Below are positions 1 to 6,547 of a stretch of DNA of 64,000 nucleotides, piece by piece. Position 1 is the stretch's first letter. Every line of letters begins with the position of its first letter. The notes beneath the pieces were generated by a model that saw only the letters and a program-made list of their open reading frames with translations, made no database searches and was not told the DNA's origin. Both the position numbers and the translations under genes were made by a program. Origin of the DNA: Promethearchaeota archaeon (GTDB lineage: Archaea; Asgardarchaeota; Lokiarchaeia; Sigyniarchaeales; SOKP01); assembly GCA_048940925.1 (NCBI GenBank), contig JBHLOC010000004.1:32001-96000 (forward strand), read 5' to 3'.

Positions 1-642
1 ATAGTACCAATTTTTGAAGGATTTACATTAAGTCATGCAATTGAGAGAATTGATCTTGCTGGACGAGATGTTACAACATATTTACAGAGATTGTTACGAC
101 AAAATGGACACTCATTTACTACATCTGCAGAAAAGGAAATCGTAAGAGATATTAAAGAAAAGCTTTGTTATGTAGCTTTAGATCCTGAGAAAGAGCTATT
201 ACTTTCAAAACGAATAGCAGGTATGGAAAAAAGCTATATGCTTCCTGATGGAGAAACTATAAATATAGGAATAGAGAGATTTTTAGCACCAGAGAGCATA
301 TTTAATCCATCAGTATTAGGCAAGGAATTAGACTCATTAGATGATGTTATTGTAGAAGCTATTACTGCTTGTGATGTAGACCTAAGGAGAGATCTCTACA
401 GCAATATTGTACTCTCAGGGGGATCAACAATGTTTCCTGGTATTAGAGAACGATTGACTCGAGAAATAAAAGAACAGATACCTGATTCCATTGATGTTAA
501 AATTATCGCTCCACCGGAAAGAATGTATTCGGTTTGGATAGGAGGCTCTATTCTTGCTTCGCTAAAGACATTTCACCGCATGTGGATCACCCGTAGAGAT
601 TATAAGGAGCTAGGACCTCAAGTAATTCATCGATGTTTTTAA
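1..642 (+). CDS. Actin (Asgard/Lokiactin-type), 5'-truncated by window edge
   Basis: Frame open from base 1: [28 protein letters not shown]...[23 protein letters not shown]...[14 protein letters not shown]...[22 protein letters not shown]...VIHRCF, hallmark actin motifs. Confidence 0.97.
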
Positions 643-663: not shown

Positions 664-879
664 GTGGTGAAAAATATGATAAAAATAGTAATGATTGATG
701 GAATTCCCTACATATTTATAGAAGAAGGGATTATTGAATTCAGTTCCAAATCACTTACAATAGAAAAAGATCATAATAAGAAGAAAGATTTTACATATTT
801 TCAGAGACAAAAGGAAGCGCAATTTATGAAGAATTTATTGAAGGAATTAAAAAGAAATTTTATGAATAAGAAGCAATAG
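664..879 (+). CDS. Small hypothetical protein
   Basis: 71-aa ORF 21 nt after the actin stop, with a GGTGGTG SD-like sequence near the start; no recognisable motif. Confidence 0.55.
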   Translation: MVKNMIKIVMIDGIPYIFIEEGIIEFSSKSLTIEKDHNKKKDFTYFQRQKEAQFMKNLLKELKRNFMNKKQ

Positions 880-968
880 GGTGAAATTAAATTTTAAATA
901 ATTTTTATTTTTCATTAAATAATCAAAAAATTAAGTCATGAATGGATTGTTTTTCATAAAGATTTTTA

Positions 969-2219
969 TTGGTTGATAAAGTGGAAAAATTGAGAAATTT
1001 TCTTGAAGAGTATTTTCAACAGGATTCTAAGATAAAGTCATATGTTTTAATTGAAGAAAAAAATAAAATCGTAGATTCATCAGGCAGCTCGGATTTAATA
1101 GATGATTTAGAAGACATAAATTCAGCTTGGAGTAAAAAGGATACTAGGGAGTTAACACTTTCTGGTATAAAATATGTAATATTACAATCTTCCTTGAATG
1201 TATTCATCGCAATTACTCCCGACAAGCAAGGGAGCATCATTGGAGTGAAAGATGAAGAACGGAAGATTTTTTATAAAATTGCTCCTGAGGGGTTAATTCT
1301 TCATAGTTTAAAAGAAGCATCAAACACTTTAAGCGAATTAAGTACAAAAGCTCCCTATATGAGTCCTGAAGATGATTTAGGCAAAACTGAACGTTTAAAG
1401 TGGGCAACTCCAAGGATACTGCTTGATGATACAAACAATTTACAAGAATTAGGTTTACTAAAGTTTGGGTTAAGTATTGAGGAAGCTAAAGTATATTTAG
1501 CCTTATTAGATAGGGGGAAGGAGGGCGCTAGTGTTGGGGAATTAAATGAAGATTTAGCTATTAAAAGAACTACAATTTATCGTATTATTGATCGTTTAAT
1601 TAGTAAAGAGTGGGCGGTGAAGTTACCATTAGTGCCTAAAAGTGCCCAAAATTATATAGCGAGACCATTAAATGACATTTTAGACGAGAGAATCCAACAA
1701 AAGGATGAGGAATTAAAAATCTTAAAAAGCTTCCGTTATATTATGGGGGATTCAAGCGAGAATGGATGGATAATTTTATCTGATATAAAAAAAGATTTAC
1801 AAACTTATAGTCAAGAAACTTTTGATTTTAAAACACTCGGAATTACAGGGGTTGAAAAGGATTGTGGTCTTCTCATTTTTGAATATGATAAAGAAATTAA
1901 AGAAAAAATTATTATTAGAGCCGCATTACAACTTTCTTTGGAAAAAATGAGGGAATTAATACAACCAGATCTCGATGAAAAAGATTTGACTATTCCTGAT
2001 TTGGAAGACATCAAAACAGAGGATACACAAATCAAGGATTATTTAGGCATGATCTTGTACTTCAAGTTTAAAGAAGGAACTGAGACTGCAAACAATATAG
2101 GTACGGATTGGATTGTAGCAGCTAGGCATGTTGCAGTCCCTATAGAGAATAAGATCTATGTGGTTTGGGGTTCGGAAGAAAAATTTCCAATTTTATTGAG
2201 TTTTATATTAAAACTTTAA
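969..2219 (+). CDS. Profilin-like N-terminal domain fused to TrmB-type HTH regulator
   Basis: N-terminal ~125 aa resemble Asgard profilin-like proteins (LSGIKYVILQ...GSIIGVKDEERKIFYKIAPEG). Central LLKFGLSIEEAKVYLALL...LAIKRTTIYRIIDRLISKEW is a TrmB winged HTH. Confidence 0.75.
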   Translation: MVDKVEKLRNFLEEYFQQDSKIKSYVLIEEKNKIVDSSGSSDLIDDLEDINSAWSKKDTRELTLSGIKYVILQSSLNVFIAITPDKQGSIIGVKDEERKIFYKIAPEGLILHSLKEASNTLSELSTKAPYMSPEDDLGKTERLKWATPRILLDDTNNLQELGLLKFGLSIEEAKVYLALLDRGKEGASVGELNEDLAIKRTTIYRIIDRLISKEWAVKLPLVPKSAQNYIARPLNDILDERIQQKDEELKILKSFRYIMGDSSENGWIILSDIKKDLQTYSQETFDFKTLGITGVEKDCGLLIFEYDKEIKEKIIIRAALQLSLEKMRELIQPDLDEKDLTIPDLEDIKTEDTQIKDYLGMILYFKFKEGTETANNIGTDWIVAARHVAVPIENKIYVVWGSEEKFPILLSFILKL

Positions 2220-2229
2220 AGTTTTCATA

Positions 2230-2778
2230 ATGACAGCGCAAATACCAGATGAATTTATGTTAAATGGTGAATCTTTTTCACTAGTAGGTTTAAAAGGCAC
2301 AGGATTATTTAAACCAGAGGATTTTGGAATAATACCGTATTTTAGTTGTACAGCTTGTTGGCGAGGATACGTTATGAAGTATGTATTTACGGAAAAACAG
2401 TTAATTATGGATGAATTGCTAGTAAATATCAATGATCCTCCAAAAATCAATGGAGTTGAAGCTCAAGATGGGAATGATCTTTTTAAATATAATTATAAAA
2501 ATTTGAATCTTAAATCAAAGTTTACAGGGAGTGTTCTTCTCGCAAAAGACTTTATACAATCTATGTACGTGCATATGGGTTTTCAGAGACCAATGGCTTT
2601 TAAGACAGTTGTTGAAATCCATATTGAAAATGGAGACATCATCTCATTAAAAGATCTTTCTAGACAGATGGAGGAACAAAGGAAAAGGGATCTTTATAAG
2701 GGAGCACAGCCTGAATCTAATTCTAAAAAAGATATTGAGAAATGGGTTAAAAAAACCTTTTCTCTTGATTATGAGTGA
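2230..2778 (+). CDS. Conserved hypothetical protein (MTAQxxD / CTACWRGY motif)
   Basis: 182-aa ORF 10 nt after the previous gene, with a distinctive TACWRGY motif. Confidence 0.75.
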   Translation: MTAQIPDEFMLNGESFSLVGLKGTGLFKPEDFGIIPYFSCTACWRGYVMKYVFTEKQLIMDELLVNINDPPKINGVEAQDGNDLFKYNYKNLNLKSKFTGSVLLAKDFIQSMYVHMGFQRPMAFKTVVEIHIENGDIISLKDLSRQMEEQRKRDLYKGAQPESNSKKDIEKWVKKTFSLDYE

Positions 2779-3627: not shown

Positions 3628-4188
3628 TTGGATATGAATAGAGAAGAGTGGCAAAAGTCGAAGGGAGAAGAAATACTTAGAGAATTTGGTATTAAAGAAG
3701 ACCAAAAAATATTAGATTTTGGATGTGGATCAGGAGTATATTCAATCATTGCTTCGAGAATAGTAGGTAACACAGGGAAAATTTATGCGCTTGATTGTGA
3801 GGAAGCCCCATTAGAAGAGTTATCAAGCAAAATCACAACTCAAAATATTAGTAATATTGAAATCATAAAAACTTCGAAAAAAATATCGATTCCATTGAAA
3901 TCTGATTCTCTAGATGTAGTATTAATGTATGATGTATATCATTTACTTGAAAAGGATGATCGAATCCAATTGTTAGATGAGATACATCGAGTTTTAAAAA
4001 GTAATAATGGGATTCTATCTTATTTTGCTACTCATATAGGTTCTTATGGAATTCAATTAAATAAAGTCCAAGAACAAATAAAGAAAGCAGGTTTTGAATT
4101 TATAGAGCAGTTTAAGCGCCCAATGTTTCATTGGACTTGGATTGAGCAAGGTATGATTTTTAAATATAAAAAAATAGGAAAAAAATAA
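3628..4188 (+). CDS. Class I SAM-dependent methyltransferase
   Basis: ILDFGCGSG motif I; DVVLMYDVYH; EIHRVLK. Confidence 0.92.
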   Translation: MDMNREEWQKSKGEEILREFGIKEDQKILDFGCGSGVYSIIASRIVGNTGKIYALDCEEAPLEELSSKITTQNISNIEIIKTSKKISIPLKSDSLDVVLMYDVYHLLEKDDRIQLLDEIHRVLKSNNGILSYFATHIGSYGIQLNKVQEQIKKAGFEFIEQFKRPMFHWTWIEQGMIFKYKKIGKK

Positions 4189-4190
4189 AA

Positions 4191-4961
4191 TTATTTTCTC
4201 GCTGTAAATATTCCGAATCCTGTGATATTCTCATATCTTATATTTTTGAAATTGTATTTATTTAATAATTTTTCCCAGTGCTCTTTATTCCTGAAAGCAA
4301 AGCAACACAAGCCACTAAATGCTACTAATTGCCATGACGTTCGATTCCATTCACTCAAGTAAAGATATCCATCAGGCTTTAAAACGCGATAAATCTCTTG
4401 CAGTGCTTTATCTTGACCGTTTGGTTCATGCACTTCATGAAGTACTGAAGAAACATTAACAATATCAAATGTATTTTTTTCAAAAGGGATGTTAGAAGCA
4501 GAACCATATTGAAAAGTAGTTCTGTCTTCAACTTTTTCAATTCTAGCATTATTTTGTACCTTATCTAAAGCATTACCCGGAATTGCTAGTTTTGAATAAA
4601 TATCAATACCGTATAAAAGTCCTCCTTTCTTTAATTCTTTAGCAATTCTAATCGCTGTTCTTCCAGTTCCACATCCTACGTCTAAAATCTGGGGATTATC
4701 AATTTCTTCTAATGCTTTCATTCTAGCAATTAAATCTATTTTTGGCATTTTTCGTAATAACAATATATGCATCGTAATCATTCCAATACCTGGCCATAAA
4801 AATACCAAAACGATAGCTAAACCCGAAATAATAAAAATTATTTGCACTACTCCATCTATTAAGAATCCATAAATAAAAACAGATAAACCTATTAATCCTA
4901 TGATATTGAATCCAATAATTAGATTCTTCACATACCATCCATATTTAGGTTTTGCTTCCAT
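4191..4961 (-). CDS. Class I SAM-dependent methyltransferase with N-terminal TM helices
   Basis: Two N-terminal TMs; ILDVGCGTG; FDIVNVSSVLHEV; EIYRVLKPDG. Confidence 0.92.
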   Translation of the reverse strand: MEAKPKYGWYVKNLIIGFNIIGLIGLSVFIYGFLIDGVVQIIFIISGLAIVLVFLWPGIGMITMHILLLRKMPKIDLIARMKALEEIDNPQILDVGCGTGRTAIRIAKELKKGGLLYGIDIYSKLAIPGNALDKVQNNARIEKVEDRTTFQYGSASNIPFEKNTFDIVNVSSVLHEVHEPNGQDKALQEIYRVLKPDGYLYLSEWNRTSWQLVAFSGLCCFAFRNKEHWEKLLNKYNFKNIRYENITGFGIFTARK

Positions 4962-4973
4962 CTTTATTTCGAC

Positions 4974-5507
4974 CTAGATTTTAATAAAATTATATTGTTT
5001 ATCAATCACTTCAGTCAATTTGAAAAGTCCTTTGGATGTGATCAGATTTATTATTTCATCTTCATTCATATGATGATCATCAAATGAAAGGATTGAATTT
5101 AGCTTTAAAACTCGATAAAATTCTTTTAATATATTAAATTTATTAGAGATGTCATGAAGTACATCAAAACAAATAATTTTATCAATACTTTCATTATCTA
5201 ATCCAGTAGCACAGTCTGTCTGAATTGTTTCAATATTAGTATAACCCATTCTTTCAGCTTTTTTTTTAATCTTTTCTAATGCCAATGGATGAATATCTGC
5301 AGCAAAAACTTTCCCATTTGGTCCTAATTCCTCAACTGCAGCTATTGTATAACTTCCTGATCCACACCCATAATCTAAGATTATATCTCCTAGTTTTATA
5401 TTAGCTTTTCTAATCTTATTTACAGGAGGGTAAAACTTATCACGAATTTTGAAAAAAAATGACATAAATCTAAAATCGATATTTGATTGTTTTTTATTCT
5501 TCTTCAT
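4974..5507 (-). CDS. Class I SAM-dependent methyltransferase
   Basis: ILDYGCGSG; FAADIHP; FDVLHD; EFYRVLK. Confidence 0.92.
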   Translation of the reverse strand: MKKNKKQSNIDFRFMSFFFKIRDKFYPPVNKIRKANIKLGDIILDYGCGSGSYTIAAVEELGPNGKVFAADIHPLALEKIKKKAERMGYTNIETIQTDCATGLDNESIDKIICFDVLHDISNKFNILKEFYRVLKLNSILSFDDHHMNEDEIINLITSKGLFKLTEVIDKQYNFIKI

Positions 5508-5952
5508 TTAAATCACCTCTATTATTTTCCTGGACATCTTCAAAACTTCCCCCAAATGCCTGAAACAGCTTGATAGCAAAATTTTTCAGTTTAGTTGATT
5601 TCATAAAGCCAAGTCCTTTTTCAATATCTCCAAAGACGAGGATTAAATCTCCAGAGTTTATTTTAAAAGTCTCTCGAGCATCTTGTGGTATTACAATTTG
5701 TCCCCTCTCACCAACTTTAGCAGTACCAAAATAGTATTCATGTTTTTCTAGTTCTTTTATATCAATTTCTAAATTTTTAGCCAAACCTAAACCTTTATTT
5801 AATTCTCCAAAAATATATACTTCATCTCTAGCTTCAATTTCAAAGATTTCTCTTGCTTTATGGGGAATAACAATTTGACCTCGTTCACCAACCTTTACTG
5901 AGCCAAAAAAGTATTTTCCTTTTTTACCAGGAAATTCAGTTATTTTAATCAC
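5494..5952 (-). CDS. Tandem AbrB/MazE/SpoVT-domain transcriptional regulator
   Basis: Two copies of FG(S/T)(V/A)KVGERGQIVIP...ARE.F.I. Confidence 0.9.
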   Translation of the reverse strand: MIKITEFPGKKGKYFFGSVKVGERGQIVIPHKAREIFEIEARDEVYIFGELNKGLGLAKNLEIDIKELEKHEYYFGTAKVGERGQIVIPQDARETFKINSGDLILVFGDIEKGLGFMKSTKLKNFAIKLFQAFGGSFEDVQENNRGDLNEEE

Positions 5953-5970
5953 CTTTTATTATTCATATTG

Positions 5971-6030
5971 ATATGATCATACCAATATGATCATATTAAT
6001 ATGATCATACGAATCATACTATATAAATAT
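5971..6030 (-). promoter_or_regulatory. Triple palindromic operator (ATATGATCATA x3, 14-bp period) plus TATA box of the AbrB-like gene
   Basis: ATATGATCATA at 5971, 5985 and 5999; TTTATAT on the minus strand at about 6021-6027. Confidence 0.7.
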
Positions 6031-6041
6031 ATTGCTTTTCT

Positions 6042-6205
6042 TTATTCAAAAATTTCAATTTCAAGATGATTCTTTGCTTCAATAAAAATAGGACCTTTTG
6101 CAATATATGTAATAGCTAAATGGCAACCTCTTCTAGAAAGAAAAATATCATTTTTGTTAATTCCAAAAGCTCTTAAAGTTCTTTCTGGCAAAATAACACT
6201 CTTAT
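6042..6205 (-). pseudogene. 3' fragment paralogous to the gene at 8655-9122
   Basis: Translates KSVILPERTLRAFGINKNDIFLSRRGCHLAITYIAKGPIFIEAKNHLEIEIFE*, matching KSIFLPERTLKAFEINKNDTLLSGRGSHLAIGFIAKGPIFEEAKKHPEIEIFE; the 5' two-thirds is missing. Confidence 0.85.
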
Positions 6206-6387
6206 ACCTGTCTCTTCAAATATTTCTCTTTTTGCGGTAGTTAAAGTATCCTCTCCTTGCCTTATATGCCCTTTTGGGTATGTCCAGCTCATATTTCGAT
6301 TTTTCACGAGAATTATTTCAGATGTGTGTCATTATTAAATATAATTCCCCCAGCAATATAATCCTGTAAAAAATTGTTTTTATTCAA
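6200..6387 (-). pseudogene. Frameshifted, 3'-truncated Nudix hydrolase
   Basis: TTG...YIAGGIIFNND / frameshift at GACACACAT / EIILVKNRNMSWTYPKGHIRQGEDTLTTAKREIFEETGI (complete Nudix box GX5EX7REUXEEXGU), then breaks off. Confidence 0.8.
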
Positions 6388-6547
6388 CTTGGCAGTTAAG
6401 TAAATTAATTCTTTTAAACTTTTTAACAATTTAATTAAGGATTTCTAATAAAAAAAAGCAAATTAAATATCAGTTAATAAAAAATTATTATATAATTTAG
6501 ATTTCCGAAAAAAATATCAAATTAATTGTAACAAAATTAAAAATAAT

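Follow-up and report, generated by a model that had tools for sequence, protein, structure and literature searches.

What is the function of a protein in which a profilin-like domain is joined to a DNA-binding domain, and what does its position behind an actin gene mean? This question is raised by a gene of Promethearchaeota archaeon (GTDB lineage Asgardarchaeota; Lokiarchaeia; Sigyniarchaeales; SOKP01), which lies on the forward strand at positions 969-2219 of the window, i.e., the whole 64,000-nucleotide stretch analyzed here (positions 32,001-96,000 of contig JBHLOC010000004.1, assembly GCA_048940925.1). This genome is labelled G000 and its contig C7, so that window position 1 is C7 position 32001 and the window is C7:32001-96000. 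To our knowledge, profilin and actin, hallmark eukaryotic signature proteins of Asgard archaea, have so far been discussed only as parts of the cytoskeleton. The protein described here is very likely a dedicated regulator of an operon that is headed by a spare actin gene, termed actin-2 in the following. That actin is the ligand of its profilin domain is, judged from sequence, an evenly balanced proposition. The whole reading, i.e., a regulator dedicated to this operon that senses actin through its profilin domain, is held tentatively and with slightly less than even confidence.

An earlier note, made from the sequence without database searches, had described an N-terminal Asgard profilin-like domain of about 125 amino acids, followed by a TrmB winged helix-turn-helix (wHTH) and a C-terminal domain that could not be assigned. 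The first of these domains (residue numbers refer to the 416-aa open reading frame, ORF) was borne out by several comparisons. A profile of the N-terminal ~125 residues from 34 family members matched only Asgard profilins among all PDB sequences, namely Loki profilin-1 (5yed, E 5e-15), Loki profilin-2 (5zzb, 4.9e-14), Odin profilin (5zza, 9e-13, end-to-end alignment) and Thor profilin (7pbh, 9e-9), and roadblock or other sensor proteins were not found among these matches. Likewise, hhalign of the domain against 20 stand-alone Asgard profilins gave a probability of 99.85% (E 9e-31) over 119 columns. In the AlphaFold2 (AF2) model of the regulator (mean predicted local distance difference test score, pLDDT, 69.8; ~80-86 inside the N-terminal domain), a helix at residues 2-17, seven strands and a helix at residues 110-124 form the helix-sheet-helix topology of profilin. 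The Foldseek ranking of PDB structures was headed by chains of Loki and Odin profilin-actin complexes (3e-6 to 1e-5); next came TrmBL2 (1e-4), and then many eukaryotic profilins (~3e-4). The Pfam family PF00235 (gathering cut-off 25 bits) did not match residues 1-130 at E up to 1, gave sub-threshold matches in 13 of 34 relatives (best E 5.9e-4) and is barely cleared by the Loki profilin of the same genome (26.5 bits). The N-terminal domain is a genuine profilin homologue and not a generic roadblock-like sensor, the fold that had been named in advance as speaking against the proposal.

The domain is homologous to stand-alone Asgard profilins over its whole length and has the same fold, with NW, W, G-KY, ER-IA and G as common landmarks. 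It differs from them by its fusion to a 290-aa DNA-binding body, by a variable N-terminal helix, and by a near-invariant G(F/V)KDEERK hairpin at the place where the stand-alone proteins have a TN..GQGH segment and the Loki loop. Stand-alone Asgard profilins (5yed/5yee, 5zzb, 5zza and 7pbh) are reportedly the subject of Akil and Robinson (2018) and of Survery et al. (2021; PMC8410842). The latter, a survey of 256 Asgard profilins, mentions extensions at the N-terminus only and no fusion of this kind, and no description of a profilin-TrmB fusion or of a second Lokiactin cassette was found in the literature searched.

Further profilin-like genes are present in this genome. The nearest in-genome relatives of the regulator's N-terminal domain (27% identity) are two paralogues of 211 aa (L010:1273-1908, reverse strand, contig C31) and 221 aa (L011:1111-1776, reverse strand, C29), which combine a profilin-like N-terminal domain with a linker of low complexity and a C-terminal helix of conserved motif, FLxWIxDxxGLAGYIxYxLQQN. 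Two other genes of this genome encode a Loki-profilin-1-like protein (L007) and a second short profilin (L006). A weak Pfam Profilin match in a 412-aa ORF on contig C73 (L008) was rejected, this being an unrelated helical protein.

The DNA-binding part of the earlier description was confirmed as well. In the Pfam scan of the regulator, no family apart from TrmB exceeded its threshold, with the TrmB wHTH matching residues 163-217 (PF01978, E 1.5e-9, 38 bits vs. a cut-off of 25.6). The recognition-helix motif KRTxIYRI is invariant across the regulator family, and the disordered linker in front carries a conserved motif, PY..(D)..LGK..LKWATPR, with invariant Y130, L137, G138, K144, and W145. In the AF2 model, the wHTH is followed by a long helix (residues 234-259) of the type that dimerises TrmB proteins. 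With Foldseek, the whole body matched TrmBL2 (5bpd, E 1e-4, with low TM-scores of 0.22/0.33) and TrmB (3qph, 2.5e-3). The C-terminal domain (residues 297-416) could indeed not be assigned by Pfam, PDB profile, Foldseek, VIA or Atlas searches: there was no Pfam family in scans of 34 members, no PDB sequence-profile match and no Foldseek match at E <=1e-3, and when the domain was folded on its own, its recurring similarities to Mog1, PsbP, and DcrB-like sandwiches were weak (VIA Z up to 5.7; for PsbP/DcrB-like clusters, Atlas TM up to 0.51). Sub-threshold OST-HTH matches occurred at residues 246-291 in 17 of 34 members. Paralogues of ~300 aa, which consist of the wHTH and the C-terminal domain and have no profilin domain, are encoded 2.6-7 kb from the actin-2/regulator cassette in several relatives (L015:6079-6912, L016:1146-1982, L032:10920-11744); none was found in this genome. 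The presence of such profilin-less paralogues near the cassettes suggests that the profilin domain was added onto a pre-existing TrmB-like regulator.

The connection with actin was followed by scanning 400 genomes from the phylum. All but one of the regulator matches fell within one GTDB family of Promethearchaeota, in which 49 of the 134 genomes besides this one gave matches (genera g1, g11, g12, and g13). The regulator is carried by 45 of the 135 family genomes, in 44 of them (including this one) at full length and in one truncated by the end of a contig. Of the full-length copies, 43 belong to relatives, and there an actin gene (420-439 bits) is located immediately upstream on the same strand at a distance of 40-650 nt, with two exceptions: the contig ends upstream of the regulator in G171, and G232 keeps the 3' half of actin only. 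The same order was found in all 20 excised loci (G232 with its truncated remnant) and in 42 of 43 loci of public records, which all belong to metagenome-assembled genomes of uncultured Promethearchaeota. G240 even contains two actin-2/regulator pairs. The contigs with the cassette are chromosomal and up to 1.28 Mb long. Synteny in Lokiarchaeia had been proposed as a check in the earlier note, and a lack of conserved actin linkage as an argument against it. The linkage turned out to be strictly conserved, and the partner to be a dedicated, co-occurring Lokiactin paralogue.

Genomes without an intact cassette complete this picture. Among ~87 family genomes without the regulator, a second Lokiactin-like gene (E <=1e-115) is present in only 3. 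In G182 and G152, which lack the regulator, both actin copies match actin-1, the canonical Lokiactin, in their profile of score and coverage, and judged by this profile the second copies, which are not part of the tree described below, look like actin-1 duplicates. In G225, where the regulator is likewise missing, a distance of 1.6 kb separates two Lokiactin genes (L035, C48:2647-3759 and 5381-6487), and the second copy of this tandem falls on the actin-1 side of the tree with a long branch. Only a 3' remnant of the regulator, comprising the last 100-160 codons, is left in G224 (L032, C4), G200 (L033, C1), and G248 (L034, C132). Two of these three remnants contain stop codons, and none has an adjoining actin-2; a conserved methyltransferase neighbour still adjoins the remnant in G224 and G248. 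In G232 (L021, C46), the regulator is intact and the remaining 3' half of actin-2 has no promoter. As actin-2 is absent both without the regulator and beside regulator remnants, the two genes are gained and lost together, although the counts are not independent events, given that these genomes are related.

The actin of the cassette is a distinct paralogue. In this genome, the whole actin-2 is found at C7:31527-32636 (429.8 bits, PF00022) and shows 82% identity to the canonical Lokiactin on contig C40, which scores 440-447 bits, occupies a distant locus and contains the region of the published antibody epitope. In L. ossiferum, there is just one Lokiactin. In the tree, the actin-1 and actin-2 groups are split by a branch with a support of 100/99. 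Actin-1 is near-invariant, with terminal branches of 0-0.02 and six identical genomes, and the branches of actin-2 measure 0.01-0.14; actin-2 evolves about ten times faster than the canonical Lokiactin. The near-fixed differences between both paralogues concentrate at residues 45-90 (numbering of this alignment), which we take, by mapping to rabbit actin landmarks, to be the D-loop and subdomain 2. Moreover, the apparent start codon of actin-2 is an ATT at C7:31471 (L002:1471), 530 nt ahead of the window. There is no ATG, GTG or TTG ahead of the DNGTG loop, and a conserved Shine-Dalgarno sequence, GAGGTGGT, is located 6 nt 5' of the ATT. This start occurs in 11 of 20 actin-2 loci (L012-L020 and L022 among the labelled ones), in L022 directly behind a TAA stop. 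At this codon, orthologues from other genera use ATG or TTG, and the start codon of the canonical Lokiactin is ATG. The ATT start may keep the translation of actin-2 low or regulated.

Upstream of actin-2, all 20 loci first examined feature an inverted repeat, (T)TGTCAC-N6-GTGACA(A), whose proximal arm stops 2-3 nt before the TATA box TTTAAATA and whose flanks are not conserved. In this genome it is located at C7:31411-31428, ~590 nt ahead of the window. In the larger set of 41 loci with upstream sequence, the strict palindrome is present in 31 and the TATA-proximal half-site GTGACAA in all 41; the ten non-strict loci keep GTGACAA with upstream half-sites that are altered, re-spaced or direct. 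One clade (G263 among the 20) has the symmetric variant GTCGC-N6-GCGAC together with the proximal GTGACAA, and in several loci extra half-sites occur at 11- or 22-nt phasing (0-2 extra). Within the 4.8 Mb genome, GTCAC-N6-GTGAC occurs as a single copy, at the actin-2 promoter. The spacings N4, N5, N7, and N8 gave no matches genome-wide; copies with 1-2 mismatches were not in excess over control spacings, and no other one stands beside a TATA box. Since ~0.8 copies are expected by chance, as estimated from base composition, the operator argument rests on position and conservation and not on the count. In Thermococcales, TrmB and TrmBL1 recognise the Thermococcales glycolytic motif (TGM), TATCAC-N5-GTGATA, which the core of the palindrome resembles. 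We infer that the regulator binds TGTCAC-N6-GTGACA. The view of the earlier note that the protein is a one-component regulator has become very likely, with the actin gene as its target, in consideration of gene order, co-occurrence and the unique palindrome abutting the TATA box.

In window coordinates, the locus is arranged as follows:

1-642, forward strand: 3' part (213 codons) of actin-2, the second Lokiactin paralogue (PF00022, E 3.5e-68)
676-879, forward strand: small conserved gene of 67 aa (tblastn matches at the equivalent position in three genera, E down to 2.6e-12)
880-980, forward strand: spacer with oligo-T runs, likely a partial archaeal terminator (T-runs past the stop in most orthologous loci)
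981-1340, forward strand: profilin-homologous N-terminal domain of the regulator, residues 5-124 (profile, profile-profile, AF2, Foldseek)
1341-1427, forward strand: low-confidence linker of the regulator, residues 125-153 (pLDDT <50 at residues 128-155)
1428-1745, forward strand: TrmB-type wHTH of the regulator (residues 154-231) and long helix (234-259) (PF01978, 38 bits; model; Foldseek)
1746-2219, forward strand: C-terminal region of the regulator, with residues 260-296 of low confidence and an alpha/beta domain at 297-416
2230-2778, forward strand: gene of 182 aa, of no Pfam family, 3' of the regulator (copies 66-80% identical)

The ORF at 969-2219 on the forward strand, as given in the earlier note, comprises 416 codons. 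More than 160 full-length relatives of ~412 aa, found in metagenomic Asgard bins, open with "ATG GAA AAA"; because this beginning aligns at residue 5, GTG 981 is preferred as the probable start, resulting in a protein of 412 aa. The upstream fragment at 1-642 is actin, on the same strand and with its stop 327 nt before the ORF, and the position "two genes after actin" is correct owing to the conserved 67-aa gene in between. In most of the orthologous loci, oligo-T runs are located past the stop of actin-2 or of the small ORF. An internal promoter of the regulator, with a TATA-like box at window 894-901, was considered and rejected, because such a box is not conserved (1 of 43 loci). Together with this missing conservation, the oligo-T runs suggest an attenuated read-through into the regulator gene.

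The 67-aa gene has a Shine-Dalgarno sequence, GGTGGTG, 5 nt ahead of its ATG. Its orthologues (65-70 aa, three genera) share the motif IKIxDGIPCIxLDEGII and a basic C-terminal helix, LLDElKKKF. Two tandem copies occur in the relative G276, and the gene is missing in the genus whose actin-regulator gap is 40-80 nt. An Atlas search with the protein gave no match; it may be, for example, a partner of actin or of the regulator. The 182-aa gene is located directly downstream of the regulator in 8 of 20 excised loci and 14 of 45 public loci examined; it may be a fourth member of the cassettes, many of which, though not all, have it behind the regulator. Further downstream, at window 3628-5507 and 5494-5952, inspection by eye pointed to three adjoining ORFs on both strands that resemble S-adenosylmethionine (SAM)-dependent methyltransferases, and to an ORF of 152 aa in which an AbrB/SpoVT-like motif, "VGERGQIVIP", occurs twice.

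From these elements, a feedback loop can be proposed for the cassette, whose order is operator/TATA, actin-2, (small ORF), and profilin-TrmB regulator. The wHTH, probably as a dimer formed via the long helix, would bind the palindrome, whose proximal half overlies the transcription factor B recognition element (BRE) next to the actin-2 TATA box. Occupancy of this site would most likely hinder the recruitment of TFB and TBP and thus lead to autorepression of the operon; this sign is proposed because a site over the BRE most often represses. Read-through past the oligo-T tracts would yield smaller amounts of the regulator. Its profilin domain would act as the sensor by binding actin monomers, be they of actin-2 or of the canonical Lokiactin, and actin occupancy would alter DNA binding, with the result that actin-2 output tracks the state of the actin pool. 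The logic of the cassette is in keeping with actin sensing, as is the homology of the domain to proteins crystallised on actin. A suggestive signal for the link between actin and the profilin domain comes from co-variation in 20 genomes. Distances of actin-2 and of the profilin domain correlated when the rest of the regulator was controlled for (partial Mantel r 0.55, p 0.0002), compared with r 0.23 (p 0.044) in the converse test, and thinning of close relatives led to a similar outcome.

Several observations weigh against actin as the ligand. The co-variation may partly reflect that the N-terminal domain is the fastest-evolving part of the regulator. The actin face of this domain may have changed, because the G(F/V)KDEERK hairpin supplants the conserved TN..GQGH segment of the stand-alone Asgard profilins. 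As the profilin-contact regions of actin (C-terminus, 166-173) barely differ between actin-1 and actin-2, they bear no mark of actin-2 as the specific ligand. The C-terminal domain is the most conserved part of the regulator (mean column identity of 68% vs. 45% in the profilin domain) and could be the true sensor. Besides, the profilin-like domain is not restricted to this protein. A single-sequence search gave no short relatives of residues 1-128, and a profile search over all representatives recovered relatives of this region. Members of the domain family stand C-terminally in Ras/Roc-type small GTPases, N-terminally to leucine-rich repeats (LRRs), and C-terminally in multi-wHTH proteins of 501 and 734 aa (domain-fusion clusters P0148, P0160, P0194, P0196, P0236, P0248, and P0206, of which the three with a source name, P0236 and P0206 with its members, carry a Promethearchaeota label and the others are metagenome sequences). 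Because of this recurrence in Ras GTPases, LRR proteins and wHTH arrays, the domain may be a general module for interactions with proteins or ligands.

These points feed the foremost alternative, according to which the protein does regulate the actin-2 operon locally, but with a profilin-like domain that binds something other than actin, or with the C-terminal domain as the real sensor. The partner might then be a phosphoinositide-like lipid, a proline-rich protein, the 67-aa protein or a GTPase-related protein, or the domain might serve oligomerisation only. TrmB-family proteins normally sense ligands via their C-terminal domain, and this habit speaks for the alternative together with the conservation of that domain here, the family-specific KDEERK hairpin with loss of TN..GQGH, and the occurrence of the same domain in Ras-GTPase, LRR, and multi-wHTH proteins. 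Nevertheless, the nearest sequence relatives in the PDB are Asgard profilins crystallised on actin, and the strict coupling to an actin gene as well as the co-variation are hard to account for otherwise. This alternative, taken in all its forms, is considered rather unlikely, albeit credible.

Actin sensing by a dedicated regulator must also be compared with DNA segregation systems, as the order of the cassette is reminiscent of them. ParMRC type II loci and crenactin-arcadin clusters likewise co-encode an actin-fold gene with an actin- or DNA-binding partner and have a cis site upstream. It is conceivable, though improbable, that dimers of the profilin-wHTH protein act as a ParR-like adaptor which, seated on the palindrome as a centromere, holds or feeds the barbed ends of actin-2 filaments via the profilin domains. 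Instead of or besides a feedback loop, the cassette would then be a ParMRC-style DNA-positioning machine made from a eukaryote-type actin, with repression of the operon as a side effect, like that of ParR on parC, and this extension merits equally little credence. Profilin binds the barbed-end groove, the same groove that the ParR tail occupies on ParM, which speaks for the idea. The order parC-parM-parR (cis site, actin-fold ATPase, DNA-binding partner) is matched by 42 of 43 loci and the palindrome, which is unique in the genome and accompanied by extra half-sites at 11- or 22-nt phasing in many loci. Additionally, actin-2 and actin-1 differ mainly in the D-loop and subdomain 2, which form filament contacts. 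However, the fixed register of 2-3 nt between half-site and TATA box in all loci points to transcription control. A repeat-array centromere, a ribbon-helix-helix (RHH) ParR and a plasmid or mobile location were not found for the cassette: there are one to three half-site pairs only, with a single promoter-embedded palindrome as the cis site, the partner combines wHTH and profilin instead of being an RHH ParR or arcadin, the actin is a true Lokiactin, and the location is chromosomal, on the long contigs mentioned above. Within the genus, only 17 of 53 genomes have the cassette, and such a patchy distribution speaks against an essential role in segregation; the ATT start suggests a low actin-2 output. 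A TrmBL2-like general chromatin protein that obtained a profilin domain by chance and has no specific operator is very improbable, since, although TrmBL2 is the best non-profilin structural match, the TM-scores to it are low, a conserved palindrome of single occurrence and an invariant recognition helix point to binding at a specific sequence, and an accessory gene behind T-tracts is unlikely to yield an abundant protein.

If the tentatively preferred reading of an actin-sensing regulator of the actin-2 operon is compared with known transcription factors, the closest relatives are TrmB, TrmBL1, and TrmBL2 of Thermococcales. Their succession of wHTH, long helix and C-terminal domain resembles the one predicted for the regulator, and their palindromic site with a TCAC...GTGA core beside BRE/TATA resembles its putative operator at the actin-2 promoter. 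The regulator differs from them by its additional N-terminal profilin domain, by a C-terminal domain that is unmatched to the TrmB sugar-binding domain in Pfam, by the N6 half-site spacing of the cassette palindrome, and by a single candidate target promoter instead of a sugar regulon. In eukaryotes, MRTF carries RPEL motifs, shuttles to the nucleus and acts as co-activator of SRF. The parallel to MRTF-SRF drawn in the earlier note holds for the proposed logic, i.e., an actin-monomer-binding module on a transcription regulator of an actin gene. It does not extend to ancestry, as there is no homology between the systems; no RPEL family turned up in the general Pfam scan of the regulator region, which included no dedicated RPEL test. 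Here, a profilin fold would be fused straight to a DNA-binding domain in a cell without a nucleus.

With a profilin fold wired to a DNA-binding domain and a dedicated actin paralogue under a matching candidate operator, the cassette offers a testable candidate for cytoskeleton-to-transcription signalling in a prokaryote. Its components are small and soluble, which makes binding tests and electrophoretic mobility shift assays straightforward, although no cultured carrier is known. For the biology of these archaea, it further means that there is an accessory, rapidly evolving paralogue of Lokiactin with control elements of its own, a conserved ATT start among them, and that Asgard signalling proteins, for instance GTPases, LRR proteins and transcription factors, have taken up profilin-like domains as reusable modules. 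If the proposed loop is true, actin would feed back on an actin gene in a prokaryote, by a logic that eukaryotes run with MRTF-SRF.

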